A stretch of 64,000 bases of DNA from the IMG/VR virus record IMGVR_UViG_3300031867_000045, positions 1 through 64,000 of that record; one strand, written 5' to 3'. The position numbers and the translations under genes are program-made. The stretch comes from a virus. How positions within the stretch are numbered: position 1 is the stretch's first letter; each line of letters opens with the position of its first letter. This document shows positions 1 to 54,599 of this stretch, piece by piece. The notes under the pieces were generated by a model. It was not told the DNA's origin and made no database searches. It worked only from the letters and a program-made list of their open reading frames with translations.

Positions 1-667
1 GTTCTTTTTCAGATTGGTTAAGAATGACATAATTATTTCTCCTTTTCTTATGTTTTTTTCAAGACGCTTCAAATTTTAGCAAATTTTCAAAGTAAATAAA
101 AACTATATTTGATTGCCATTTTCGGCAATCTATTTTTCTTTAGTAGAAGAATAGCAACTCTCGCAAGAATCACATTCCCATATTTGATTTAATCTAATAT
201 GTAATATCATTTTATTGTTTTGTTATTATTGCTGTATACCAGTAACATTTAACCGGCGCGTCTTATCACGACACTTCAATTATCGGGACAAGTGCAGGAT
301 TTTAACCTGCGTTTTCTCCTTTAAAGGGAGACGATCTAAACGCTGATCTAACTCGTCAATAATATTGCTGTCGATGTCGTATCATTCTATATGCTAAACG
401 CAAAATGCGTTAAAGCCAAAACTTCAAGACTCCATAAGGTATTAAAAGAGGCACTGTGCTACCGTTACACTACCATGCCGGAATCGAACCGAACCTGCGC
501 CTTGGAATATTTTATAACCAAAAATTGCTGTCGGAGTCTTATCAAATATTAAATTATCAAGACACATTGTTTGCGACCCTATCGGGTTTGGCGGACTTGA
601 ACCGCCTAAATATAACAGCCAAAAGTAATATTATTATCCATGCGTAAATTTGCTGTATGTGTCTTAT

Positions 668-1213
668 TTATTTACTGTAAATAAATTTTTCAAAATACTT
701 CGGTGGAACATATTTAGTCAAATATACTCCATTTTCTGATTTGAAAAATTTAATACCGTTTTTGTACATTAGCCTTGAATTAATGACAATTACCACGGGA
801 TTTCCGTGCCGCCTTCCTACATTAAATGCCGTCTTTTCATCGGAAGATAAATGAACATATAAACGGCTTTGCGGTTTGATACCTTGCTTTGAAATTGAAT
901 CATAAAATTTAGTGCAGGTTCCATGATACAATATAGAGGGCGGTTCAACCTCTTTCAATTCAACATCTACATTGATCGAATGACCTTGATTTGCCCTAAT
1001 CTTTGTTTTATCAGAATTAAATGAATATCTTTGTTTACTGTCCGACTTGACAATTTCTTCAAGTATAGACATATCTATACGATATTTCCTATTAATTCCC
1101 GCTATCAGTTGTTTTACGTCAGCCCAGCCGTGAGAGTCGAGTGTGATCCCTGCTTCTTCTGGCTTATGCCTCAGAATTAAACTGATATATTTACTTAAAT
1201 TAGTGTAAGACAT
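668..1213 (-). CDS. kptA: RNA 2'-phosphotransferase (Tpt1/KptA family)
   Basis: 181 aa, alignable along its whole length to E. coli KptA: FLSxxLRHKPE, GWAD, RANQGHS, LYHGT, RLYVHLS, ARxHGxPVV motifs all present. Confidence 0.8.
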   Translation of the reverse strand: MSYTNLSKYISLILRHKPEEAGITLDSHGWADVKQLIAGINRKYRIDMSILEEIVKSDSKQRYSFNSDKTKIRANQGHSINVDVELKEVEPPSILYHGTCTKFYDSISKQGIKPQSRLYVHLSSDEKTAFNVGRRHGNPVVIVINSRLMYKNGIKFFKSENGVYLTKYVPPKYFEKFIYSK

Positions 1214-2437: not shown

Positions 2438-3211
2438 TTACTCACCAACAAAAATTAAATCATCAATATATTTCCGACCTTCGCCCTTGAAAACGGGAAT
2501 TTCATCATCAATCACCCACGAACTTCTGCCGGTAGTCTGATCGACTTTGCGAATACAACAACTGCCACGCTTATATTTTGTCGGATAACTATTCCAGTCA
2601 ATTCCCTTTTCATTGAGCAACATCTTGATGATCTCGCTCGTATTTTTACCGTGCATTTGCTTATCGGAAAAGTTTGCATGACCGACCATTTGAATCGAAT
2701 TTCTGATCGCGTCCTGCTGCCGCCAATAAATATTATTGGCTACTTCCTCTTTCGGAATGTTAAATACACGAGCATCAAACATAGCGCCCTTTGTTTCTGC
2801 TATTCCATGTGCGCAATCCCAGCCGATAACCCAACCGCGTGAGAACGCTTTATTAAAAGCTAACGTCGCCATGCTTGCCGCTACGCTTGCACATTTTTGA
2901 ATGTTGTAATCAAACCACGCGGTGGTATTAAGTTCTTTGTAGTCGATCAAAACTAATGTGATCTCGTCCGACTGAGTATAACCAAGAACGCAACCTTGAA
3001 TATTCTCACATAGATATCGCATAGTGTCTTGCATAGCCGCCGAAAGAACAGTATCAAATGGTCTTTGGAATCCGCGAGTGAAAGTATGAAATGCCTTACC
3101 GTCGATTCTGATAATGACCGGCGTTCTCGTAGTTAAATAATTCCGAGAAACATATTCATATTTTTTCATTCTCTTATCGAAGTCGCTGTATTTGCTCATA
3201 ACGTATTTCAA
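2438..3211 (-). CDS. Thg1-like tRNA-His guanylyltransferase
   Basis: 257 aa with Thg1 signature blocks: TPVIIRIDGKAFHTFTRGF, GYTQSDEITLVL, plus the downstream acidic/aromatic regions typical of Thg1/TLP. Confidence 0.7.
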   Translation of the reverse strand: MKYVMSKYSDFDKRMKKYEYVSRNYLTTRTPVIIRIDGKAFHTFTRGFQRPFDTVLSAAMQDTMRYLCENIQGCVLGYTQSDEITLVLIDYKELNTTAWFDYNIQKCASVAASMATLAFNKAFSRGWVIGWDCAHGIAETKGAMFDARVFNIPKEEVANNIYWRQQDAIRNSIQMVGHANFSDKQMHGKNTSEIIKMLLNEKGIDWNSYPTKYKRGSCCIRKVDQTTGRSSWVIDDEIPVFKGEGRKYIDDLIFVGE

Positions 3212-4239: not shown

Positions 4240-4692
4240 TGGTGGAGCTGGTGGGTGTCGAACCCACGTCCAAAATTCATACTCAAATTAACTATTTTTA
4301 CGCAATAGACTAATTTTCACTGAATCCGTATTAGTCAAACGCTGGGTTCATTCAAATAGGTCGCCAGTTACCTTTGGGAATGTAAAGGTTTATACTTTAC
4401 AATCGTCCACCACTTACTTTTTAGGAAAGCAAGAAAACCATCGCATGCGGCACCACTTGTTTTTAAGGCTCAAACAAGAAACCATCATTCAATATTCGTC
4501 CGACAAATTAACCGAATGACAGGTGTTTACCGGAATCTGGATCAAGCCGCAGTTCTCTTAGAGAGAGCAGCGACAAGAGCCGGATGAAATACAACAGTAG
4601 TATTGTCGTTTATTTTTGTTTTGCGCCGTAAGGTGGATCGCCAACCTGCGAAGTTAATTCTTTCAAAACCCTGTCGAATCCAATTCAGCCCC
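4240..4692 (-). ncRNA. ssrA: tmRNA (ssrA-like transfer-messenger RNA)
   Basis: 5' end GGGGCTGAATTGGATTCGACAG and 3' end GGACGTGGGTTCGACACCCACCAGCTCCACCA match the tmRNA tRNA-like domain (E. coli GGGGCUGAUUCUGGAUUCGACGGG and GGACGGGGGUUCAAAUCCCCCCGGCUCCACCA). An internal frame ends ...NDNTTVVFHPALVAALSKRTAA-TGA, which looks like a tag peptide. Confidence 0.65.
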
Positions 4693-4838: not shown

Positions 4839-4933
4839 TGGCGGAGCGGGTGGGACTCGAACCCACACACCGAGATCGCTCGGCTACTTTCTGTGTAGCA
4901 AACAGATACCTTACCAATTAGGTTTACCGCTCC
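4839..4933 (-). tRNA. tRNA-Ser (anticodon GCT), class II with long variable arm
   Basis: 95 nt; anticodon stem tctgt/acaga, loop ttGCTac; long variable arm; T-arm gtggg-ttcgagt-cccac; CCA encoded. Confidence 0.7.
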
Positions 4934-5550
4934 ATTTCTATCGGTTTTAGACTCCATTTATATCCAAAAGCTGTTTTACTCAAACCTCTGGCACAATCAC
5001 TAATATGACCTGGTTTTTTACCAATAAATCTTGCAGCATCAGAATATGATTCAAATGTATGTAATAAGTTGCCGTTAAGATCATATTGATAAATAATCAT
5101 ATGATTTTCTAAATTACTATAATCTTTATTATTAATTGCGTAGTCAATAATATTTTCTGCCGTAAAGTCATCCACACAAAGAGGGATTGAAGCATTTACT
5201 TTTCTTCTACTAAATGCCAATGTCCTTGTAGAACCATTGCAAAATTCAATCGGTAAAAGATAACATTGATTATTGTAATATGTTCCAATCATATCAATTT
5301 CATTTTTCGTGTATTCATGTTTTACATTTTCTTTGCCGGAAGTTGTAATTGAATATGCTTTAATTTTGATTCCCGTTTCAACTTCTACGCAACTTTTTAT
5401 TTGAACTCTTAATAATAAGTTATTAACATCAAGTATAAAATCGTATTTGCAATCTTCTCCAATAGGAACACTCACATTATATCCAAGAGAAGTTAGATAT
5501 GCCTCACACAATAATTCTGTTGCTATCCCTTTTGCTTTACCATTAAACAA
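4924..5550 (-). CDS. homing-endonuclease-like protein (PD-(D/E)XK-like N-domain plus C-terminal NUMOD/AP2-like DNA-binding repeat)
   Basis: 208 aa. N-terminal motif ELLCEAYLTSLGY...DxxxDFIL..RVQIKS resembles a restriction-endonuclease-like core. C-terminal IYQYDLNGNLLHTFESYSDAARFIG..GxISDCARGLSKTAFGYKW is a typical homing-endonuclease DNA-binding module. The stop lies in the 10 nt overlap with the 5' acceptor strand of tRNA-Ser. Confidence 0.5.
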   Translation of the reverse strand: MFNGKAKGIATELLCEAYLTSLGYNVSVPIGEDCKYDFILDVNNLLLRVQIKSCVEVETGIKIKAYSITTSGKENVKHEYTKNEIDMIGTYYNNQCYLLPIEFCNGSTRTLAFSRRKVNASIPLCVDDFTAENIIDYAINNKDYSNLENHMIIYQYDLNGNLLHTFESYSDAARFIGKKPGHISDCARGLSKTAFGYKWSLKPIEMER

Positions 5551-8320: not shown

Positions 8321-9061
8321 TTAGAATGTATACCCGTCCATTAATCTCATTTTGAATTTATTTTTCTGATGGAGTGCATCAATCTTGTTCTTTACTGCCC
8401 CATCTTCGCAAATGCCTGTCCGAATATACCGATCAAGCGTTTCGTATGTAAAACCCAGGTTTTCCTCGTCAGTCTTTCCGCACAAACCATCTGATGGCTC
8501 TTTATCCATCAAATAGTCCGATAATCCGAGAGCATACCCAATGTCAATGACTTCACTTTTTGTAAACGGGGCAAGCGGCGACAAATCACCAACAGAATCT
8601 CCGTATCTCGTTGAATATCCGATATAGTCCTCAGATAAATTGCAAGTATTGACAACTCTACCGTTACTGCTCTGTGAAACAGCGTATAATGCAGCCATGC
8701 GGATTCTCGCAGGGAGATTGGTAGTTGTCTGACCGGAAATATTAAGAGTAGGCTCTTTTTCCATTCCGTCTAAAATTCCATCTACGGAATTGCCGATATT
8801 GATGGTAAAACTCTTAATTCTAAGAGTATTCACAAGCGTTTCAGCATATTTAATATCGTCCTGCTCGTGGTCTGGAAGTAAAACGCCGATGACGCGGTTT
8901 TCTCCCAAAGCCTTTACGCACAACGCGGCAACCACAGAGCTATCAATTCCGCCGGAAATTCCGACAATGGCTTTTCCAAAATTGCTATTCTTTCTGAACC
9001 AATCCTTAATCCATTCAGCACACTTTTCAGCATGATAATTTCCAAATCCAAATCTATTCAT
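8321..9061 (-). CDS. nadE: NH3-dependent NAD+ synthetase
   Basis: 246 aa; SGGIDS PP-loop motif and overall NadE-like sequence (GISGGIDSSVVAAL...). Confidence 0.75.
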   Translation of the reverse strand: MNRFGFGNYHAEKCAEWIKDWFRKNSNFGKAIVGISGGIDSSVVAALCVKALGENRVIGVLLPDHEQDDIKYAETLVNTLRIKSFTINIGNSVDGILDGMEKEPTLNISGQTTTNLPARIRMAALYAVSQSSNGRVVNTCNLSEDYIGYSTRYGDSVGDLSPLAPFTKSEVIDIGYALGLSDYLMDKEPSDGLCGKTDEENLGFTYETLDRYIRTGICEDGAVKNKIDALHQKNKFKMRLMDGYTF

Positions 9062-10530
9062 TAGAAATCACCGCCGTGCAAAGTTTTTCTGATTTCTTTC
9101 AGACTGGTTTCTTTCAGCATTTCACCATCACGGAAAATAGGCTTTAACATATTGCAAGGATCATTACTTGCTTCTTCCCAAGTCTTTTGATCTGTATAAG
9201 CAATCCCGCCATAATAATCCTCATAAACAAGACAACAACCCTTTTGAGAAGTCTTGAATCCGCCCTCTTTCGGGTCTTTGAAAATGGGAGTAGGCTTTCC
9301 GTCAATCTCACAATATGTCGCCTTAATACAAGAACTGAAAGTATCACGAGTAAACGGTTTTAGAATCCCATCTTCTTCAATGCACTGGAATGAGAACGAA
9401 CCGACACCGAGAGATACATTACAAGCCGCAAATCCGTTTTCTTTGAGAATTTCATAAATCTTCTCGCAACGCTGAACGGTAATTGAATCACCGTACAGAG
9501 CTTTCACACGAGGATCGAGGACTTTATATCCCTTGCTATTAATATAACCGCCGAACTGATCCCATAACTTGAATACCGTCTTTGTTACGACTTCCACGCA
9601 ATCGCCGGAATCTCCGCGCATAAGCATACAACCATTATGGTTCATAATTTCCTTTTTGAGTTTCGGAAGTACGTTATCAATTACATTCCAGTAATCATAA
9701 GAATCCAAAACGCAAGAAAATGATGTATTCGGGTAAATCTCCGTCAACAGTCTGCGGAGCAAAGTAATTTCATCACCGTCAACCGCAAAATTAGAACACA
9801 TTACAGAATGTTCGGTACTCGGAGCGCCAAATCCAACAGGTTCATTTTTGCAATCACAATTATAATTCTTTTCCAAATACGGAATTGCGGGAACCGTTGC
9901 AGTATTCAAGAATGAAAGCAACCAACCCGCAGCCGCCTTCGTTGCAGACTGTAAACATTCCTCACCGCGAAAATCAAAATCTCCCAACGCTCTTGCTCTC
10001 GGCATATCGTCGTCACAGGTTTCAGCATAATACTTGTTCACGATTTCACGATAAGTTGCGCCGACGGTGGCAGCCAACATGGGGTGCCACATTTCAGCCG
10101 AGATCAGCGATTCAAGCGACTGAGGAAGCCATGCAAAATCGGGATGGGTATTTGTGATTCCGAACATCGGAACGTGCATAGGCACTTTCGTTCCTTCGGG
10201 CAACGCCACAATTTCAATGGGTAAATATCCGAGATTATGCAGTTTCTTGATTTTGTTGATATTATATGTATCTTTTCCAAGAGTGGCGTCCATGATTCTT
10301 TGATATTCAACCAAAATCAGGTCGAGGGGCTTTTCAAAAAATTCTCTGTTGAAGTAATCAATCAGATATTCCTTAATAAATCCCTGCAATCCAAAGAATA
10401 CAACTTCATTCCAGCGCTTTACTCTGCTCATTCTCGGAGTAAAATAAGATACCGATTTTGTGATCTTTTCCGGCAACATTTCAGCGTGTACCGCCTTATA
10501 GTAGTCGATCAATAACATCGGATTCGTCAT
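9061..10530 (-). CDS. nadV: nicotinamide phosphoribosyltransferase (NadV/NAMPT)
   Basis: 489 aa; NAMPT-like blocks (DSYDYWNVI, LMRGDSGD, GVGSFSFQ...TRDTF) and the right length. Confidence 0.75.
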   Translation of the reverse strand: MTNPMLLIDYYKAVHAEMLPEKITKSVSYFTPRMSRVKRWNEVVFFGLQGFIKEYLIDYFNREFFEKPLDLILVEYQRIMDATLGKDTYNINKIKKLHNLGYLPIEIVALPEGTKVPMHVPMFGITNTHPDFAWLPQSLESLISAEMWHPMLAATVGATYREIVNKYYAETCDDDMPRARALGDFDFRGEECLQSATKAAAGWLLSFLNTATVPAIPYLEKNYNCDCKNEPVGFGAPSTEHSVMCSNFAVDGDEITLLRRLLTEIYPNTSFSCVLDSYDYWNVIDNVLPKLKKEIMNHNGCMLMRGDSGDCVEVVTKTVFKLWDQFGGYINSKGYKVLDPRVKALYGDSITVQRCEKIYEILKENGFAACNVSLGVGSFSFQCIEEDGILKPFTRDTFSSCIKATYCEIDGKPTPIFKDPKEGGFKTSQKGCCLVYEDYYGGIAYTDQKTWEEASNDPCNMLKPIFRDGEMLKETSLKEIRKTLHGGDF

Positions 10531-11393
10531 AGATTAAACACCTCGATTTTAGATGGCATTAAGTCAATATCTTTCGCATACTTCTGCGTACTCTTGACAA
10601 AAATGCTATCTGTAGTATATAGTTTCTCGATTAAATCTCCGTGTAACAATTCACCACGAAAAACGGTAAATTCACAATGAGTTACAAATAGATATATCTT
10701 ATCCGCGCCGAGTTCTTTTAACTTCTTCGCAGAATGTAAGAATGTTCCGCCTTTACTGCAAATATCATCAATGATTAAAACTATTTTGTTTTTAATCAAA
10801 TTTGTATCTCCGCAAACATCAAGCCCAAGAATATTTCCAGTTTCCCAATCTCGCCGTTTGATACCAAAAGCGTATGGTCGATTGATCTTGCCGGAATACC
10901 GTTTCATGGCACCTTCATCGGGAAAGAATATCGTTGGATTTGTTATGTAATTATCCTTGCAAACATTCTTAATTGCCTGTTCGATATAGGGAGTAGGTTC
11001 CAAAACGGTCAAATTATCGAACAACGCTTCACTCACAGAAGAATGAGGGTCTAAGACAACCACATTCAAGAATTTCAGCGCATTGATAAATTCCGCAAAA
11101 TATTTCAAAGTGAAAACATCCGATTTTCCCTTTACCCTATCCATTCTGGCGTTCGGAATATACGGCAAGAATAGCTCAACATCATAACCCAATCTTTGCA
11201 GGTGTTTTGTCAGAAATAAGATTGCTGCCATTTCACCGTCATTCTCGTAATGCCATGAAATAGTCACGGATTCTTGAATAGGCTCGACAGACTTCAACTC
11301 GGGTTTCAAGTGCAAAGTTCCATCGGGAAAATGATCGAGGACAACTTCGTTTCCATCAATTTTAATCATTCTGTTACCTCGTCGATCTGGCAA
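10527..11393 (-). CDS. prs: ribose-phosphate pyrophosphokinase (PRPP synthetase)
   Basis: 288 aa; PRPP-binding loop IVLIIDDICSKGGTF and PRPP synthetase N-domain. Confidence 0.7.
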   Translation of the reverse strand: MPDRRGNRMIKIDGNEVVLDHFPDGTLHLKPELKSVEPIQESVTISWHYENDGEMAAILFLTKHLQRLGYDVELFLPYIPNARMDRVKGKSDVFTLKYFAEFINALKFLNVVVLDPHSSVSEALFDNLTVLEPTPYIEQAIKNVCKDNYITNPTIFFPDEGAMKRYSGKINRPYAFGIKRRDWETGNILGLDVCGDTNLIKNKIVLIIDDICSKGGTFLHSAKKLKELGADKIYLFVTHCEFTVFRGELLHGDLIEKLYTTDSIFVKSTQKYAKDIDLMPSKIEVFNL

Positions 11394-11929
11394 GAGTGCA
11401 TGACCATCTTAGCAGCGTTATGTAATTCGGGAGTCACACCCGCACAACAAGAGAAGTCACAAGCGATTTGGATTTCCGGCGCGGCTGTCTTGATAACCAG
11501 TGCGTTAGTCACTACACAAATATCGGTACACAATCCAACAAGTTCAACGTAATCGAATCCGCCCTGAACAACAGCCTGAGCCAATGCGAAAGAGCCGAAA
11601 GACTCCTTCAAGAAAACTCTTTTATCATCGTTGTAAGTGAATTTTTCGTTCTTCTCGGCAAGACGATCTCTGAAAGCCTTTTCAATGGTTGGATTCAACT
11701 GCCAACCCTCGGTATGTAAGATACAGTGTTTCACGGGCAAGTGTTTGCCCTCATTAGAATCGAGGTATGAGTCCTCAAAATGTGTGTCATATGTAGCCGC
11801 GATCTCACCGTCGAATGTTTTGATTTTTTCTGCAACCTTATCAACGATTGCCATAGCTTCGGGAGTTCCGAGAGAGCCGTCAATAAAATCGTTTTGACAG
11901 TCAACCACGACAAGTAAACGTTTTTCCAT
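11366..11929 (-). CDS. pncA: isochorismatase-family nicotinamidase (PncA-like)
   Basis: 187 aa; VVVDCQNDF N-terminal motif and catalytic-cysteine block GLCTDICV typical of PncA. Confidence 0.65.
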   Translation of the reverse strand: MEKRLLVVVDCQNDFIDGSLGTPEAMAIVDKVAEKIKTFDGEIAATYDTHFEDSYLDSNEGKHLPVKHCILHTEGWQLNPTIEKAFRDRLAEKNEKFTYNDDKRVFLKESFGSFALAQAVVQGGFDYVELVGLCTDICVVTNALVIKTAAPEIQIACDFSCCAGVTPELHNAAKMVMHSCQIDEVTE

Positions 11930-13756: not shown

Positions 13757-14125
13757 TCAGTGAACCAAGATAGGAAATTGTATGCAGATAGCGTCTGTAA
13801 TATGTGTCAGAATCGCATTGTCCGCAATTTCTCCGATACACTTATCTAATCTTTCGATGTTTACGGTCTGAATCTGCTCGATCAACAATGTACTCGGCGC
13901 TTTCAGCCCGTATTCATTGTAATCCCACAATTCAACGTGTACCGGCAACTTCTTCTTGCTCATTCTCGATGTAATGGGAATGACATTGAGCGTAGTGCTA
14001 TATGTATTATTTTTGTTGTTGGAGAGGATAAAGACAGGTCTATATCCGCCCTGTACGCTACCCTCCGAAGTAAGGTAGCATAGCCAGATTTCGCCGCAGC
14101 GAGGTCTTGTGTTTGAGCGCAGCAT
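13757..14125 (-). CDS. MazF/PemK/Kid-family endoribonuclease toxin, with no antitoxin ORF
   Basis: 122 aa; GEIWLCYLTSEGSVQGGYRPVFILSNN...TTLNVIPITSRM...PVHVEL...LKAPSTLLIEQIQTVNIERL matches the PemK/MazF fold signature. Confidence 0.6.
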   Translation of the reverse strand: MLRSNTRPRCGEIWLCYLTSEGSVQGGYRPVFILSNNKNNTYSTTLNVIPITSRMSKKKLPVHVELWDYNEYGLKAPSTLLIEQIQTVNIERLDKCIGEIADNAILTHITDAICIQFPILVH

Positions 14126-15053: not shown

Positions 15054-16025
15054 TTATTTCGCAACTCCTTCGATTAAGCTCATAAACTCATTCATGGCTT
15101 CAATATGAATCGCAGGATCAGAATTTCCGGCGTTCTCTGCCCCACTCTGATAAACCATAGCAATAATATCACGCAGGTCTGCAACATCGAGCGTCATAAC
15201 GGGATTTGTAGATTCCGCAGTGAAATTTTCGCCGCCCTGAACGTGCCTATTATAGAAATCTCCAAAATCCTTGAAATACTGATCGACCTTGCTTTTTGTC
15301 AAGCCGATATATCTCTTGGTGGTTTTCGTATCGCTATGATTGTAAATGGTCTGCAAGAGTTCCATGCTGTCATAGTCATTCGGGTGCAGCATACGACTGA
15401 TCTTTCCGAAAGTCTTTCGTGTGCTGTGCGTTCCAATATTGTATTCAATCCCGCAATTTTCCGCTGCACGTTTCAGCGCTTTTCTCCAACCATCGGGAGA
15501 AAGAACGTTGCCTTTTCCAGTTCCCGAAAGCTGCATGAATACAAATCCGTGATAGTTTTCCGCAGATGGATCACAGCCCGTCTTTTCGAGATACAGATTA
15601 ATGGCGTCCTTGCAAGCCTGATTGATATAAGGATTCGCCAGTTTGTCGGTCTTGTCCTCTACGATTTCCATTAATTCCGTGCGAAATTTTCCGTTTTTCG
15701 GATTAAAGAAATGTTCCCATGTCAAGCTCAGAGTATCACCGACACGACGAGCCATATTCAAAGAAATCACAAACAGCATATAATGAAGCCATGATTTGTT
15801 TTCAATAAAGTAATTCATCATTTTCCGCAAATCCGCGACTTCAAATGCGAATACTTCCGACTTCTTGCCCTTCTGCTTGTTTTGCTTGATCTTCTTGGGC
15901 TTGCCGTCCTTACGAAGTTTCGGGGCATTTTCCGGCTGAGGATCAACAGGCATTTCGGTAAAGAAAGTCTGTCCGGGAAAAAGTGGTGATGTTACCATAA
16001 CGGTATTAGTCTGAATATTTTTCAT
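15054..16025 (-). CDS. int: tyrosine-type site-specific recombinase (phage integrase)
   Basis: 323 aa; box I ARRVGDTLSLTWEHF, box II/III HSTRKTF...LLQTIYNHSDTKTTKRYI (R-H-R-Y catalytic residues); basic N-terminal arm. Confidence 0.75.
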   Translation of the reverse strand: MKNIQTNTVMVTSPLFPGQTFFTEMPVDPQPENAPKLRKDGKPKKIKQNKQKGKKSEVFAFEVADLRKMMNYFIENKSWLHYMLFVISLNMARRVGDTLSLTWEHFFNPKNGKFRTELMEIVEDKTDKLANPYINQACKDAINLYLEKTGCDPSAENYHGFVFMQLSGTGKGNVLSPDGWRKALKRAAENCGIEYNIGTHSTRKTFGKISRMLHPNDYDSMELLQTIYNHSDTKTTKRYIGLTKSKVDQYFKDFGDFYNRHVQGGENFTAESTNPVMTLDVADLRDIIAMVYQSGAENAGNSDPAIHIEAMNEFMSLIEGVAK

Positions 16026-21238: not shown

Positions 21239-22243
21239 TTTTTTCTTGAAAAAAATGCTCAATAATTGAACACTTTTTCAGCCGATTTTGACGATAAAAT
21301 TACCATTTGATTTACATTGTTATTTGCTTAGTTTTTTATATATTCTTTCTCTATATTGGTTTACTTTCTTTTGGTATATATTTCCTTTGACCATATCCAA
21401 TATTCTCAAAGCATCATTATACCTCTTTCCAGAAATGTAAAGATCAACGAGCCTAAAAGTCCAGCTCATACTATCAAAGGCTAAACCGCCATTTTGAAAA
21501 ATCAATTCCCAAAAAGATGTGATTTTTTCGTAATCACAATCATTTTCATATTGTTCTTCCGCCTTATTGATTGCCTCAATTTGCATTTCTTGCAATACCA
21601 ATATTTGATATTGCCTCGGAGCAACCTCTTTAAATCTTTCTAATTCTGATTTATCTAATGGGAGTATTCTTTTTACTTTTTTACCAATATACATATTTCT
21701 TACCTCTTATATTCATAATTTTCCGCGCCGGTGATATACTTCTGAAAATCTACGCGAATCAAATCATCGTTTCCGATCTTTTTCACTCCGCTGCCGAATG
21801 CAATTCTTCCGTTTGCTCCGACAAAGTTAATTGTCTTGTTTCCATTCACCGCCATAATCTCGGCATAACATCTTTCTGTCGGCTTTGCGCCGTCGCAAAA
21901 GGTGAATCCCTCGTCCTCGGCAAGCTGCATAAACTTTTCGCCGATTGCCACGTTTGCAAGATATACATATACTCTGCCGTTTTTCTTGCTTAATTCTTCG
22001 ATTGTTCTCATTGATATTTTCCTTTCAAAATAGAATTTTCGTAAAATAAAATCCTATCTTAACCGATAGGATATATCTCACTCCTATCGGTCAAGCATTA
22101 CCACCTTGCCTATTTATCGTCAGATTTTCCGCAAATTGCCGATTGATATGGTAGGTTGGTGTACGGTCATCGGGCTTGCCCCTCGCGTACTCTATATAGG
22201 ACTTATTCTATTACTTATAGTATAGCCAGATTTTCCGGTATTG

Positions 22244-50260: not shown

Positions 50261-51181
50261 ATGCCAAAACCAACAGGGAAAAGCGAGTGCTGCTGTTGCG
50301 GTGAATCGCTCTCCCCCACTCATTTTTATAAATCCAATAGTGGATTTTATAAAACAGGTCGCTTACCTATTTGCCAAGATTGTTTTAAGGCAAAATTTGG
50401 GCAATATGCGGCTGAATATTTAAGTAATAAAAAGGCTATGCAACGAATGTGCATAGCCTTTGACATTTATTTCAACGAAGATGTTTTTGATAAATGTGAT
50501 AACAATGATGAAACAGTTATTGGAAATTATTTTCGGCAATTAAACTTATCACAATGTAAAGGAAAAACTTTTGAGCATACAATCAACGAGGGTAATTTCA
50601 CGTTATCCGGCGCAAGAAAAACCGTCAAAGATGGTGGTCGCGTTGCCGTGGTTGATGAATACGGAAACGAGAACGAAGAAGTATCTGTTGATCCTAAAGA
50701 TGTTGAACGCTGGGGTGAAGGATTAGACCCTGTTGATTATGTGAATCTCAATAACCATTATCAATATTTGAAAAATGCGAATCCTCATTGTGATAGCAAC
50801 CAAGAAATTTTTATAAACGATCTTTGTTACGCGAAAATGCAACAACTTCAATGCGTTCGCAGTCAAGATAGAGATGGGTTTAAGAAAATGGGCGAATATT
50901 ATAATGCAACATTTCAAAAGTCAGGTTTAAAAATATCTAACGACTCTGAAAATAAAGGGGACGATACCCTTGGAACTTGGCTTGGAAGAATTGCTCAGTA
51001 CACTCCCGAAGAATATTACAAAAATAAAACATTGTATCAGGATCACGATGGATTGAGAGATTACATCGAAAGGTTCTTATTGCGTCCATTAAGAAATTTA
51101 CAACATGGAACTAAAGATAGAGATAGAGAGTTCTATGTTAAGGAAGATGGTGAAACTCGTGAAATTGACAACTCCGACTAA
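50261..51181 (+). CDS. hypothetical protein with N-terminal zinc ribbon (small terminase candidate by position only)
   Basis: 306 aa; CCCCGES...CQDC ribbon; lies immediately upstream of and overlapping the large terminase ORF. Confidence 0.3.
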   Translation: MPKPTGKSECCCCGESLSPTHFYKSNSGFYKTGRLPICQDCFKAKFGQYAAEYLSNKKAMQRMCIAFDIYFNEDVFDKCDNNDETVIGNYFRQLNLSQCKGKTFEHTINEGNFTLSGARKTVKDGGRVAVVDEYGNENEEVSVDPKDVERWGEGLDPVDYVNLNNHYQYLKNANPHCDSNQEIFINDLCYAKMQQLQCVRSQDRDGFKKMGEYYNATFQKSGLKISNDSENKGDDTLGTWLGRIAQYTPEEYYKNKTLYQDHDGLRDYIERFLLRPLRNLQHGTKDRDREFYVKEDGETREIDNSD

Positions 51182-52988
51182 GCCATACAAAAGCCGCTAT
51201 GCGGATAATAAACAATCAGAACTATATACAAAATTTCCTACCACCAATTTTCTTGGAAACCCTCAAAATGTAGACCATGTTTTAAAATGGTGTACTTTCT
51301 TTCGTAGAAATTTACATCGTGTAGCAACAGATTATCTTGGATTAAAACTACATATGTATCAAGTTTTGGTTTTGTATTTAATGGGTATTTGTAAAACAAT
51401 GGTGATTGTTGCCGCTCGAAGTGCTGCAAAATCATTCATTATTGCAATATACGCTTGTTGTGTATGTATTGTTTATCCATATTCTGAGGTCGTATTAACC
51501 TCTGCAACAAAGAAACAAGCTAAACTTATTGTTTCGGCAAAGATACAACAGTTGCAGAATTTCTCTCCTGTATTGAGAAAAGAAATAACAAAAATTAAAG
51601 ATAACCAAAATGAAGTAATTGTATTTTTCAGAAGTGGAAGTACAATCACGGTTGTCCCTGCTAACGAAAATGGGCGCGGCTATAGGTCAAATTTTGCTAT
51701 TCGAGAGGAATTTAGACAAATCAAAAAAAATATAGAAGATAGTGTTATTGCTCCGTTCCAAGTTATTAGACAAGTCCCTTATATGGTTGATCCATATTAT
51801 GCTGATATGCCAGTTGGAGTTTGCATTCAAGATTCAGTTGATGTTTATATCAGTTCATCTTGGCTTGATCCGCATTGGATGTGGACTGTTGTTGATAATG
51901 CGTATGAATCAATGTTGGATGGAACTGGGCAATTCTTGATAGCTTTTGACGAAAGTATAGTATTAAAACATAAAATCAAATCGCAGGATTATTACCAAAA
52001 AGAAAAGAAGAAACAAGATAGAATCACATGGGAATGTGAGTTCTTAAATGTTCGTATTAAGGAAAACCAGTTTGCTTTCTTTACATATAAGATGTTTAAT
52101 GACAATCAACATTTAAAACAAGTATTCTATCCAAGAACTACTGCTGATTTTATTATTGGTAGGAAAAATCCATATGCGATATCAAAACAAAAAGGTGAAA
52201 TCAGATTAATCGGAGCAGACTTATCATTTGTGACCCGCAAAGGTAATGATAGGTCTGTTTTTACTTGTATGAGATTATTGCCAGAAACAAAGAGGTATAA
52301 ACGCTCAGAAATGGATGATCTCGAAGTAAGTGGTGGTTACAGACGTATTGTTCCATATATGGAATCATTGCAGGGTGGCGAGATAAGTAATCAAGCACAA
52401 AGGCTAAGACAATTATATGAAGATTTTGAAGCGGATTATATTGTCCTCGATTGCCGGAACGCCGGAATAGCTGTATATGACTGTCTTGCAAGAGTAATGT
52501 ATGACGAAGAACGCAAGGTCGAATATTCACCTTTAAAATGTATGAATGACGAAGCAATCGCAGATCGAATCCAATCGGAGGGTGCATTGGAGTGTATATA
52601 TGCTATAAATGCTTCTCAAAAGCTCAATAGCGATATTGCATTGGATTTTTTACGTGTATTGGAACAAGAAATGATTAATTTCCTTATTCCGTATGAATCT
52701 GCGCAAGACGAAATTTTATCTCAAAATGATAACTATTTAAGTACGCCCGATGCGGACGTTCAATTCTTTTATGAAAGTCCATTTCTTGAAACACAGGCTT
52801 TAATTACAGAATGTATCGAACTGTCTTACGAAAAGAAAGAATCTGGAATAATTGTTGTCAAGGAAGGTTCAACATCACATAAAGACCGTTATTCTTCATG
52901 TAGCTATGCTTCATATGTAGCAACATTATTTGAAAAAGATTTATTTTCCGTTTCAGACGAGTACGCATACGGCGTTTATATTAACTAA
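51105..52988 (+). CDS. terL: terminase large subunit
   Basis: 627 aa; Walker-A-like VIVAARSAAKS after LHMYQVLVLYLM; size and position ahead of the portal; the true start is probably internal, because the listed start overlaps the upstream gene by 77 nt. Confidence 0.55.
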   Translation: MELKIEIESSMLRKMVKLVKLTTPTKPYKSRYADNKQSELYTKFPTTNFLGNPQNVDHVLKWCTFFRRNLHRVATDYLGLKLHMYQVLVLYLMGICKTMVIVAARSAAKSFIIAIYACCVCIVYPYSEVVLTSATKKQAKLIVSAKIQQLQNFSPVLRKEITKIKDNQNEVIVFFRSGSTITVVPANENGRGYRSNFAIREEFRQIKKNIEDSVIAPFQVIRQVPYMVDPYYADMPVGVCIQDSVDVYISSSWLDPHWMWTVVDNAYESMLDGTGQFLIAFDESIVLKHKIKSQDYYQKEKKKQDRITWECEFLNVRIKENQFAFFTYKMFNDNQHLKQVFYPRTTADFIIGRKNPYAISKQKGEIRLIGADLSFVTRKGNDRSVFTCMRLLPETKRYKRSEMDDLEVSGGYRRIVPYMESLQGGEISNQAQRLRQLYEDFEADYIVLDCRNAGIAVYDCLARVMYDEERKVEYSPLKCMNDEAIADRIQSEGALECIYAINASQKLNSDIALDFLRVLEQEMINFLIPYESAQDEILSQNDNYLSTPDADVQFFYESPFLETQALITECIELSYEKKESGIIVVKEGSTSHKDRYSSCSYASYVATLFEKDLFSVSDEYAYGVYIN

Positions 52989-53003: not shown

Positions 53004-54599
53004 ATGCCAGAAAGTTCTCAAAAATCACAGACTCATGCGTATGAATTTTCTTCATATGAAAGTCAAATGACATATTCAAATTATTATTTTAGCTTAGATA
53101 TTTTTGATACATATACGCAGGAGCAATTAGAATCATTAGTTCGTGATCCGATTGCCAATAATGCGTTATTACGCGAAATCTCACGTATTCTATATGGAAC
53201 GAGCGGTGTTTACACAAATACAGTTGACTATATGGTCGCTATGCCAACGTTGGATAAAGTAATTATTCCGTATGGTAAAAATGTATCTAAAAAGCGTAAG
53301 TACAAAGAATTAATCGAATCTACTTTACGCACCATTAAAGATAAGGAGTTTATTCGTGATGCTTTATTTAGAGGCATGATTGACGGTATTGCATTTTATT
53401 ATTTTGAAGTTGCAAGTCGCCCAAACGCATTAGGCAAAATGTTGACGGATTATGATGTAAATAGCATTATTGAGATCAATGAACTTGGCATAAATGCAAG
53501 TATTATTTCCCTCCCTACTGATTATACACGAATCGTAGGAATTAAAAACAATTCTTATGTTATTGCTTTCAATTTAGATTATTTTACAAATGGAAATGGC
53601 GAAAAAGTTGAAAATAAATTAAAAAAATATCCGAAAGAGATTCGTGAGGCATATTATCGCCGAAAGAAAGATGAAGGATTTACAGGTGGGAATTGGGTTG
53701 TTTTAGACAATACGAAGACTATTGTTCATAAAATACGCAGTGATCGCTCTGAAAAATATGGTAGACCATTGGTTCTTGCGGCAATTCGAGATATTTTATA
53801 TGATGATTATTTTATCAAAACCAAGAGAAATGTTCTTGGTGAGATTAACAACAAAATTATTTATCAAACCTTGCCGGAAGGACAAAAGAAAGGTACTTGC
53901 GCATTAACGAGACCACAACAAGACGATCAACACGCTAAAGTTAAAAGTGCTGTAATGAAAAAGAATAGTCGTGGAGGAATTTCATTCTTTACCGTTGCAT
54001 CTGGAACAAAAATCAGTTCTCTTGATGTTGGCAATACAGATATTTTCGATGATAAATATGAATCAAATCTCGATAATCGTATTGCCCTTGCACTTGGTTT
54101 CGCGGCTTCTGCGCTTAATGGTGTTGGTTCTGGTAGCTATTCCGCACAAGAAACCAACTTAGAATTAGTAACTCAACAAATCTTTCAATGGATAGATCAG
54201 ATAACTAATGAACTGAATAAGTGTTTGATTTCAAGTATTATTAAGGACAAAACAAATTGGGCGGAAGTTAAATATCTACCGATCACTCTTGTAAACCGCG
54301 GAAAAATGGTTGAATATTGCAAAGACCTTTACCTACAAGGTAAAGGTTCTTTATCTTTATGGGCAAGTGCGTGTGGTATTGCGCCGGATATATTCTTTGC
54401 ACTACTCGATCAAGAATTGGACGATGAAATTGAGGAAAAATATCCTGTTCATAAGACAAGCTATGTGCTATCCGCAAGAGACGAATTTGCATTGTCCGAT
54501 AAGGGTGGTAGACCAAAAACTGATAACCCAACTGAAAATACAATTAAATCACAAAATAATAACGGTAATGCGACGCCCACACCGTCCGATAAAAAATAA
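53004..54599 (+). CDS. portal protein (by position and size)
   Basis: 531 aa, directly after terL with an RBS; acidic C-terminus; followed by terminator gaagcccgcaatttgcgggtttttt. Confidence 0.45.
   Translation: MPESSQKSQTHAYEFSSYESQMTYSNYYFSLDIFDTYTQEQLESLVRDPIANNALLREISRILYGTSGVYTNTVDYMVAMPTLDKVIIPYGKNVSKKRKYKELIESTLRTIKDKEFIRDALFRGMIDGIAFYYFEVASRPNALGKMLTDYDVNSIIEINELGINASIISLPTDYTRIVGIKNNSYVIAFNLDYFTNGNGEKVENKLKKYPKEIREAYYRRKKDEGFTGGNWVVLDNTKTIVHKIRSDRSEKYGRPLVLAAIRDILYDDYFIKTKRNVLGEINNKIIYQTLPEGQKKGTCALTRPQQDDQHAKVKSAVMKKNSRGGISFFTVASGTKISSLDVGNTDIFDDKYESNLDNRIALALGFAASALNGVGSGSYSAQETNLELVTQQIFQWIDQITNELNKCLISSIIKDKTNWAEVKYLPITLVNRGKMVEYCKDLYLQGKGSLSLWASACGIAPDIFFALLDQELDDEIEEKYPVHKTSYVLSARDEFALSDKGGRPKTDNPTENTIKSQNNNGNATPTPSDKK

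Follow-up and report, generated by a model that had tools for sequence, protein, structure and literature searches.

The locus at positions 4240–4692 (minus strand) of the window, i.e. the whole 64,000-nucleotide stretch of viral DNA analyzed here, is a complete one-piece tmRNA (ssrA) gene of 453 nt with an encoded CCA end, and its status as a genuine phage-carried gene for a ribosome-rescue RNA is confirmed. The identity of the gene, its architecture and reading frame, selection acting on it at the peptide level and its phage context are established here. The RNA is probably functional. Its gene, an accessory one, lies in the tRNA array of a large Firmicutes phage that is probably temperate, and the RNA would carry out ordinary trans-translation with host factors.

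When the window was compared with the Rfam tmRNA model RF00023, the match scored 90.7 bits (gathering threshold, 47; E = 6 × 10−34 for the whole 64-kb window), and the alignment covers model positions 1–374, i.e. the full model, with coordinates of exactly 4240–4692 on the minus strand. That strand starts with GGGGCTGAATTGGATTCGACAG and finishes with GGACGTGGGTTCGACACCCACCAGCTCCACCA. The first-pass annotation, made from the sequence alone, had proposed a tmRNA here and had recommended an Rfam search; the full-model match bears it out, and it gave the coordinates, the strand and the two terminal sequences correctly. Its remark that the gene is longer than typical also holds (453 nt vs. a 374-position model). 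The two ends do not belong to separate tRNA-like fragments, the outcome that it had named as fatal to the proposal: the full model matches, and the pseudoknot and tag architecture is present. For the two-piece (permuted) tmRNA model RF04321, only partial matches were obtained in the window (33 and 23 bits vs. a gathering threshold of 47), and the gene order is the standard one, not that with the 3' tRNA-like half preceding the 5' half, which rules out a permuted tmRNA. A scan for promoter- and terminator-like sites around the gene gave nothing beyond the level of shuffled sequence.

The other recommended search, with ARAGORN, gave a mixed outcome. With default settings, the program predicts 19 tRNAs in the window and misses the tmRNA; at a 90% threshold, it recovers the same tmRNA ends, flagged ‘Tag not identified’. 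The tag proposed at this relaxed threshold (GAACDGFLAFLKSKWW...) lies inside the pseudoknot domain, is not conserved and was rejected. After in silico deletion of about 40 nt of the pseudoknot domain (the extra unit described below), default ARAGORN calls the gene with the tag DNTTVVFHPALVAALSKRTAA*. Thus, the failure of the default run is a length artefact rather than a defect of the gene, because the shortened gene is called with the same tag.

Architecture of the RNA

Relatives of this gene were found via the neighbouring Thg1-like and SPFH proteins, through Rfam scans of their loci and with a tag-based DNA pattern, which was run on three collections with matches triaged by profile. Together with the window, these make at least 12 distinct tmRNAs of one family (the window and 11 relatives, denoted here by L numbers), 371–489 nt in length. 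Helices were proposed by eye and then tested on the 12-sequence family alignment (mean column identity, 62%). The principal elements are as follows (nt, position in the RNA; cells, cells of the family alignment that are paired).

4686–4692, minus strand: 5' strand of the acceptor stem, GGGGCUG (nt 1–7), with G3, which forms the alanine identity pair G3·U70; 7/7 pairs with nt 443–449
4240–4250, minus strand: 3' strand of the acceptor stem, CAGCUCC, with the discriminator A and CCA (nt 443–453)
4251–4267, minus strand: T-arm, GUGGG-UUCGACA-CCCAC (nt 426–442); 5/5 pairs, 100% of cells (12 sequences), 3 pairs changed on both sides
4666–4685, minus strand: D-loop analogue AAUUGGAUUCGA (nt 8–19) and 5' strand of helix 2a (nt 20–27)
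4271–4278, minus strand: 3' partner of helix 2a (nt 415–422); 8 pairs, 100% of cells, 7 changed on both sides
4288–4304, minus strand: 3' strands of helices 2b and 2c (nt 389–405), pairing with nt 36–46; 6/6 and 4/4 pairs, 91.7% of cells
4622–4647, minus strand: pseudoknot 1 (PK1; nt 46–71), with stem 1 (S1; 47–49 with 59–61) and stem 2 (S2; 52–54 plus 57–58 with 66–70)
4546–4571, minus strand: helix 5 (nt 122–147), entirely within the tag frame; 9/10 pairs in the window, 81% of cells family-wide
4482–4533, minus strand: pseudoknot 2 (PK2; nt 160–211), with S1 (160–167 with 186–193; 8/8 pairs) and S2 (171–179 with 203–211; 9/9 pairs)
4451–4484, minus strand: extra pseudoknot-like unit (nt 209–242), a tandem duplicate of the nt 253–288 unit, about 80% identical to it
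4405–4440, minus strand: conserved unit GGUUUUCUUGC..AAGUAAGUGGUGGA (nt 253–288), with a hairpin (260–266 with 274–280)
4308–4408, minus strand: 3' pseudoknot domain, with a hairpin (292–298 with 306–312) closed by 285–287 with 314–316

In the proposed structure, 85.6% of cells are paired, vs. 40–47% when the 3' partners are slid by 1–3 columns (12 relatives). Changes on both sides were observed in 43 of 82 pairs, and none of 500 shuffles equalled any of the observed measures. Support is strongest for helix 2a, the hairpin at nt 260–280 and the T-arm (each 100% paired), followed by the PK1 stems and stem 2 of PK2. The folding of the pseudoknots, which the first-pass annotation had also proposed as a check, thus yields helix 1, helix 2, PK1, helix 5, PK2 and the T-arm with compensatory changes across the 12 relatives.

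The tRNA-like part has the features expected of a tmRNA: the third pair of the acceptor stem is G·U (G3·U70) in 11 of the 12 relatives, i.e. an alanine-identity acceptor stem, a tRNA-like T-loop is combined with the D-loop analogue, and a long helix 2 replaces the anticodon arm. In PK1, upstream of the resume codon, 88.9% (S1) and 87.3% (S2) of cells are paired, and 6 of the 8 pairs changed on both sides; in S2 of PK2, the corresponding values are 86.6% of cells and 4 pairs. Helix 5 is replaced by another hairpin sequence at the same position in L050 and L179. Further downstream, all cells of the 7 pairs of the 260–266/274–280 hairpin are paired, 5 of these pairs having changed on both sides. 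The 292–298/306–312 hairpin forms 7/7 pairs in the window and is paired in 59% of cells in the family, where the alignment is poor. A candidate pseudoknot at nt 338–385 shows compensatory changes in L003 and L007, as judged by eye, and another at nt 320–351 is tentative. The pseudoknots downstream of helix 5, the later ones partly resolved, close onto helix 2, as in other tmRNAs.

The extra length of the window gene compared to the shorter relatives consists of two insertions in the pseudoknot domain, namely, the nt 209–242 unit and one in the 3' part. Besides the window, only L003 and, in part, L007 have the nt 209–242 unit, which is missing from the shorter relatives. The number of pseudoknots varies among bacterial tmRNAs (PMC1168896).

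The duplicated region resembles the wcaG RNA (RF01761), an orphan riboswitch candidate of marine phages, in that both the window and L003 contain two GGUUUC-stem-UUC..AAA-stem-GUGG(Y)G units split by a hairpin. Inside the tmRNA, the wcaG model matches positions 4399–4486 of the window (minus strand) with 39.4 bits, below the gathering threshold of 42, and positions 2008–2100 of L003 with 48 bits, above that threshold. The window unit, with a subthreshold match that lies within a tmRNA, does not qualify as a wcaG RNA proper; genuine marine wcaG RNAs, in contrast, are free-standing and mostly score 77–101 bits. The converse possibility, that the wcaG RNAs of marine phages might be unrecognized pieces of tmRNAs, was rejected as well. 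Among 20 wcaG loci, 17 were confirmed, several of them beside tRNA genes, and none of the 17 overlaps a tmRNA or permuted-tmRNA match; ARAGORN found a tmRNA in 1 of 120 wcaG loci, 2 kb away.

Tag and reading frame

The elements that define the tag are the following.

4608–4612, minus strand: upstream pentanucleotide UAAAC (nt 81–85), preceded by an A-run; AAAUAAAC followed by GAC is the same in 12/12 relatives
4542–4607, minus strand: tag frame, with the resume codon GAC (4607–4605), 21 codons (DNTTVVFHPALVAALSKRTAA) and the stop TGA (4544–4542)

The sequence AAAAAUAAAC followed by GAC is identical across all 12 family members, i.e. an A-rich linker with U-A at positions −5/−4. In E. coli, the pentanucleotide U85-A86-G-U-C before the resume codon GCA sets the frame, A86 being decisive by experiment (PMC2481249); UAAAC followed by GAC has the same register as U85-A86-GUC followed by GCA. 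Default ARAGORN calls a tmRNA in five relatives, in the frame of the first-pass annotation and with a GAC start. Given these five calls, the call in the shortened window gene and the invariant U-A at −5/−4, Asp (GAC) most likely follows directly on the charged Ala, and the predicted tag, (A)DNTTVVFHPALVAALSKRTAA, is one codon shorter than initially proposed. The frame and the stop of the earlier proposal stand; its start, AAC (Asn), is the triplet at −1 relative to the resume codon.

Among the three frames that follow AAAAAUAAAC, only this one is open and conserved across all family members: it runs as far as the TGA, as the first-pass annotation had it, and is the sole frame kept in the 12 sequences. 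In L007, it accommodates an in-frame 3-nt indel, and the stops in the family alternate between TGA and TAA. In pairwise comparisons of the eight equal-length family members, the synonymous proportion of codon differences is 0.44 in the tag frame vs. 0.15 and 0.05 in the other frames, and there are 0 internal stops in the tag frame vs. 13 and 3 in the other two. The frame that ends at the TAA in the helix 5 loop, the canonical stop site, is lost in L004 and L001 and was rejected; the third frame is interrupted by stops in relatives and was rejected, too. As judged by these comparisons, the tag is under selection at the peptide level, and the RNA contains the internal frame typical of tmRNAs, start-codon-less, conserved as a peptide and terminated by a stop codon. 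The tags of the family fit the pattern D-x(2-4)-(T/I)-V-x-(F/L/I)-H-P-A-(L/F)-x-A-x-x-(S/G/A)-x-R-(A/T/V)-(A/V)-A.

The tag of the window ends T-A-A, in line with the earlier description of a non-canonical tag that is nevertheless Ala-Ala-terminated, and those of the relatives end V-A-A, A-A-A or A-V-A; the C-terminal sequences include ...HPALVAALSKRTAA and ...GQRAVA. A hydrophobic residue followed by Ala-Ala is the typical, albeit not universal, end of a tag. Terminal Ala-Ala and the free carboxylate are the main determinants of recognition by ClpX, and in 8 of the 12 family tags Ala-Ala is kept, after a small or hydrophobic residue that is not the usual Leu. This pattern argues against the possibility that the tag is a non-degradation signal, whereby the RNA would rescue ribosomes and append a phage-specific peptide that escapes ClpXP-type proteases or targets another protease, a chaperone or the membrane, sparing saturation or sensing of host proteolysis. 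We consider such a role unlikely, although several features of the tag are compatible with it: the tag is roughly double the normal size, its conserved positions are internal (HPA(L/F) and an Arg three or four residues from the end), four relatives end A-V-A rather than A-A, and a canonical-looking end, ...ALVAA, is extended by the seven residues LSKRTAA, which are encoded by the loop and the 3' strand of helix 5, the stop following the helix instead of lying in its loop. No bacterial chromosomal ssrA with a tag of this type was found among the matches listed from the tag-pattern scan, which also agrees with a non-degradation role; yet long natural tags are known in other bacteria, and the tag may simply be host-like. 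A degradation tag within ordinary trans-translation is the likelier reading, although the T-A-A end here and the A-V-A ends of four relatives depart from the canonical hydrophobic-Ala-Ala terminus and speak against it.

Compared to the bacterial ssrA of E. coli and B. subtilis (RF00023), the window gene shares the tRNA-like domain with G3·U70, helix 2, PK1, helix 5 and downstream pseudoknots, as well as the A-rich linker with its U-A, located four to five nt ahead of the resume codon, and the start-codon-less frame. It differs in being carried by a phage without an adjacent smpB, in its length, in the resume codon (GAC for Asp where GCN is usual), in the tag (22 residues including the charged Ala, ending T-A-A), in the stop after helix 5 (in the loop in bacteria) and in the extra duplicated pseudoknot unit. 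Both non-GCN resume codons and long tags occur among bacterial tmRNAs.

Relatives, hosts and phage context

The window is phage DNA with 37.6% G+C, densely packed ORFs and the standard genetic code. The genes relevant to the following are listed here.

51105–52988: large terminase (TerL)
53004–54599: portal
285–357, minus strand: tRNA-Sup(UUA), an ochre suppressor (ARAGORN)
668–1213, minus strand: Tpt1/KptA RNA 2'-phosphotransferase
2438–3211, minus strand: Thg1-like tRNA 5'-end enzyme
4924–5550, minus strand: PD-(D/E)XK and NUMOD1 homing-endonuclease-like gene, between tRNA-Gln and tRNA-Ser, just upstream of the tmRNA
8321–11929, minus strand: NAD salvage cluster (NadE, NAMPT, PRPP-synthetase-like and isochorismatase/nicotinamidase-like)
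13757–14125, minus strand: PemK/MazF-like mRNA endoribonuclease toxin (Pfam PF02452, 75 bits)
15054–16025, minus strand: tyrosine recombinase, 10 kb from the tmRNA
22051–22202, minus strand: SAM riboswitch (RF00162; 49.6 bits vs. a gathering threshold of 44.4), upstream of small ORFs

With the terminase, the portal, the 19 tRNAs and the tRNA-repair enzymes in the same window, the gene is phage-borne, as had been proposed. The tmRNA lies inside a minus-strand tRNA array flanked by the Tpt1/KptA and Thg1-like genes, which suggests an island devoted to the repair or maturation of tRNAs that perhaps counteracts tRNA-cleaving host defences. The NAD salvage cluster could be a counter to NAD-depleting defence systems. 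A second SAM riboswitch was seen in the relative L019 (2053–2137).

At least seven related phage contigs have kept the PemK/MazF-like gene; as it also occurs in relatives that have no tmRNA close by, strict co-occurrence of the two was rejected. No obvious antitoxin was found among the small ORFs adjoining the toxin gene. The ochre suppressor was not found in the collected relatives, L001 having instead a tRNA with the anticodon UCA. TAA is the commonest stop of the window ORFs (53 of 84) despite this suppressor; UGA, the stop of the tmRNA tag, is not read by it. No SmpB was detected in the 64-kb window (the genome is probably >100 kb) or in the collected relatives with approximate query sequences, the B. 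subtilis SmpB query being 99% identical to the database entry.

Every one of the relatives in the family sits in a phage tRNA array, and their contigs are mostly about 80–170 kb. Two copies come from bacterial assemblies: one, from the isolate Ruminococcus sp. YE282 (207-kb contig NZ_FMUV01000001.1, L153), has exactly the sequence of L004 from IMG/VR, and the other, in an Eubacteriales MAG, has the same tag as L050 (a 251-kb IMG/VR contig) and differs from it by a few bases. Both are found in the same phage-type tRNA array context. The evidence points to clostridial hosts (Oscillospiraceae or relatives), and the window would, by extension, come from a large phage of gut or rumen Firmicutes with a host of this kind. 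Given the tyrosine recombinase and the related phage in the YE282 contig, the phage may be temperate or live in a carrier state; beside the terminase of relatives, a protein with a YonG_N domain points to SPbeta-like phages.

No exact matches to either tmRNA terminus were found in the viral collection, and the route via SmpB to a host chromosomal ssrA led to Bacillaceae only, the sole SmpB among the collected loci being alphaproteobacterial. The terminase of the window has more than 1800 homologous relatives. As far as can be judged from these searches, which set a lower limit on family size and host range, the tmRNA family is small and phage-specific, with an unusually long conserved tag.

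The tmRNA is missing from the syntenic site in several close relatives and is, therefore, accessory and dispensable. In three relatives (L001, 2942–3344; L044, 1679–2081; L257, 9953–10355; all minus strand), the T-arm is non-canonical (GGAGGGCRGTTCTCC vs. GGGTTCGAnnCCC), with the tag and the rest of the RNA intact; these tmRNAs are perhaps impaired, or else cope with an unusual T-loop. Given this aberrant T-loop, not all family members need be active.

Proposed function and alternative readings

Expression and charging of the RNA, its reliance on SmpB from the host and what becomes of tagged proteins are inferred along the following lines; the roles put forward in the first-pass annotation, rescue of ribosomes on cleaved mRNAs and retargeting of tagged proteins, are likewise hypothetical. 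The tmRNA would undergo the same maturation as the tRNAs next to it and receive alanine from the host AlaRS through G3·U70 and A73. Because no SmpB was found in the phage region examined, host SmpB would have to serve and bind the phage tmRNA; EF-Tu would then bring it, in infected or lysogenic cells, to ribosomes held up on non-stop or truncated mRNAs. Translation would resume at GAC, four nucleotides past the invariant U-A, and the ribosome would append (A)DNTTVVFHPALVAALSKRTAA, terminate at UGA and be freed; the hydrophobic, Ala-Ala-ended tag would most likely direct the truncated protein to a host AAA+ protease. The phage would thus gain ribosome-rescue capacity at a time when non-stop complexes are expected to rise, the likely sources being host and phage RNases, the phage MazF-like endoribonuclease and read-through by the ochre-suppressor tRNA. 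Both MazF-type mRNA cleavage and suppressor-tRNA read-through generate tmRNA substrates. The link of the tmRNA to these two genes is circumstantial: relatives keep the MazF-like gene whether or not a tmRNA lies close by, and only the window carries the suppressor. We know of no demonstration that a phage benefits from its tmRNA or that phage tags act as degradation signals.

A bolder reading joins these elements into a translation-reprogramming kit, in which the phage's own MazF and suppressor would make non-stop complexes and the tmRNA would clear them with a non-ClpX tag (HPAL core, R-x-A-A end), such that the fate of the product would be unlike that of host-tagged proteins, and the duplicated wcaG-like unit would bind the partner of the wcaG RNAs. 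We give this reading little credence; if true, it would provide the first functional handle on the wcaG motif.

It is very unlikely that the RNA serves as a decoy, titrating SmpB, AlaRS or EF-Tu of the host and thereby inhibiting its trans-translation. The idea is already in the literature, a decoy role having been suggested for the TLD-only molecule of mycobacteriophage DS6A (PMC4131195), and both the lack of a phage SmpB in the region examined and the degenerate T-loops of three relatives are compatible with it. However, the tRNA-like domain alone would suffice for a decoy, yet the resume context, frame, stop, helix 5 and pseudoknots are all conserved, and the synonymous and compensatory substitutions in the tag frame and the structure imply that the tag is translated.

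Equally improbable, and largely refuted, is a recently captured host ssrA or integration leftover (an attP-related fragment) functionless for the phage: such an origin would accord with the tyrosine-recombinase gene at 15054–16025, the patchy presence among close relatives and the reports of ssrA as a common integration site, with ssrA fragments in prophages (PMC9004378), but the gene is full length rather than a 3' fragment, lies amid the tRNA array 10 kb from the recombinase, is common to at least 12 diverged phage contigs with structure and frame maintained, and its matches in bacterial assemblies are all within the same phage-type tRNA array. A functional phage tmRNA engaged in ordinary trans-translation thus stays the favoured reading.

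Phage tmRNAs as such are already known: they are carried by mycobacteriophages and Bacillus phage G (PMC4131195), occur together with SmpB in huge phages (PMC7162821) and are found in about 2.3% of 18,146 phage genomes (PMC9004378). Like the tmRNAs of the Bxz1-group mycobacteriophages, phage G, huge phages and marine myophages such as Melnitz, the gene described here is a complete ssrA in a large genome rich in tRNA and translation genes, and the proposed role, sustained translation in the infected cell, is the same. Unlike the permuted tmRNAs of marine phages, it is in one piece. It further differs from earlier phage tmRNAs in that it is accompanied by neither a SmpB gene nor a riboswitch and in that its nucleotide similarity to GenBank phage records, where no relative was found, is limited to a single match of 66 nt in the 3' tRNA-like domain. 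What is particular here is a tag family of its own, the stop after helix 5, the duplicated unit and a length that defeats ARAGORN.

This length bears on how common such genes are. The window gene is outside the detection range of ARAGORN, so the ARAGORN-based surveys cited would miss it; surveys relying on this program alone under-count phage tmRNAs, of which lengthened ones exceed the program limits, whereas covariance-model searches find them. The family is tractable, given the copy in the cultured Ruminococcus sp. YE282 and a tag that should be distinctive enough for tracing by mass spectrometry, and the existence of close relatives with and without the tmRNA gene makes a comparison between them possible.
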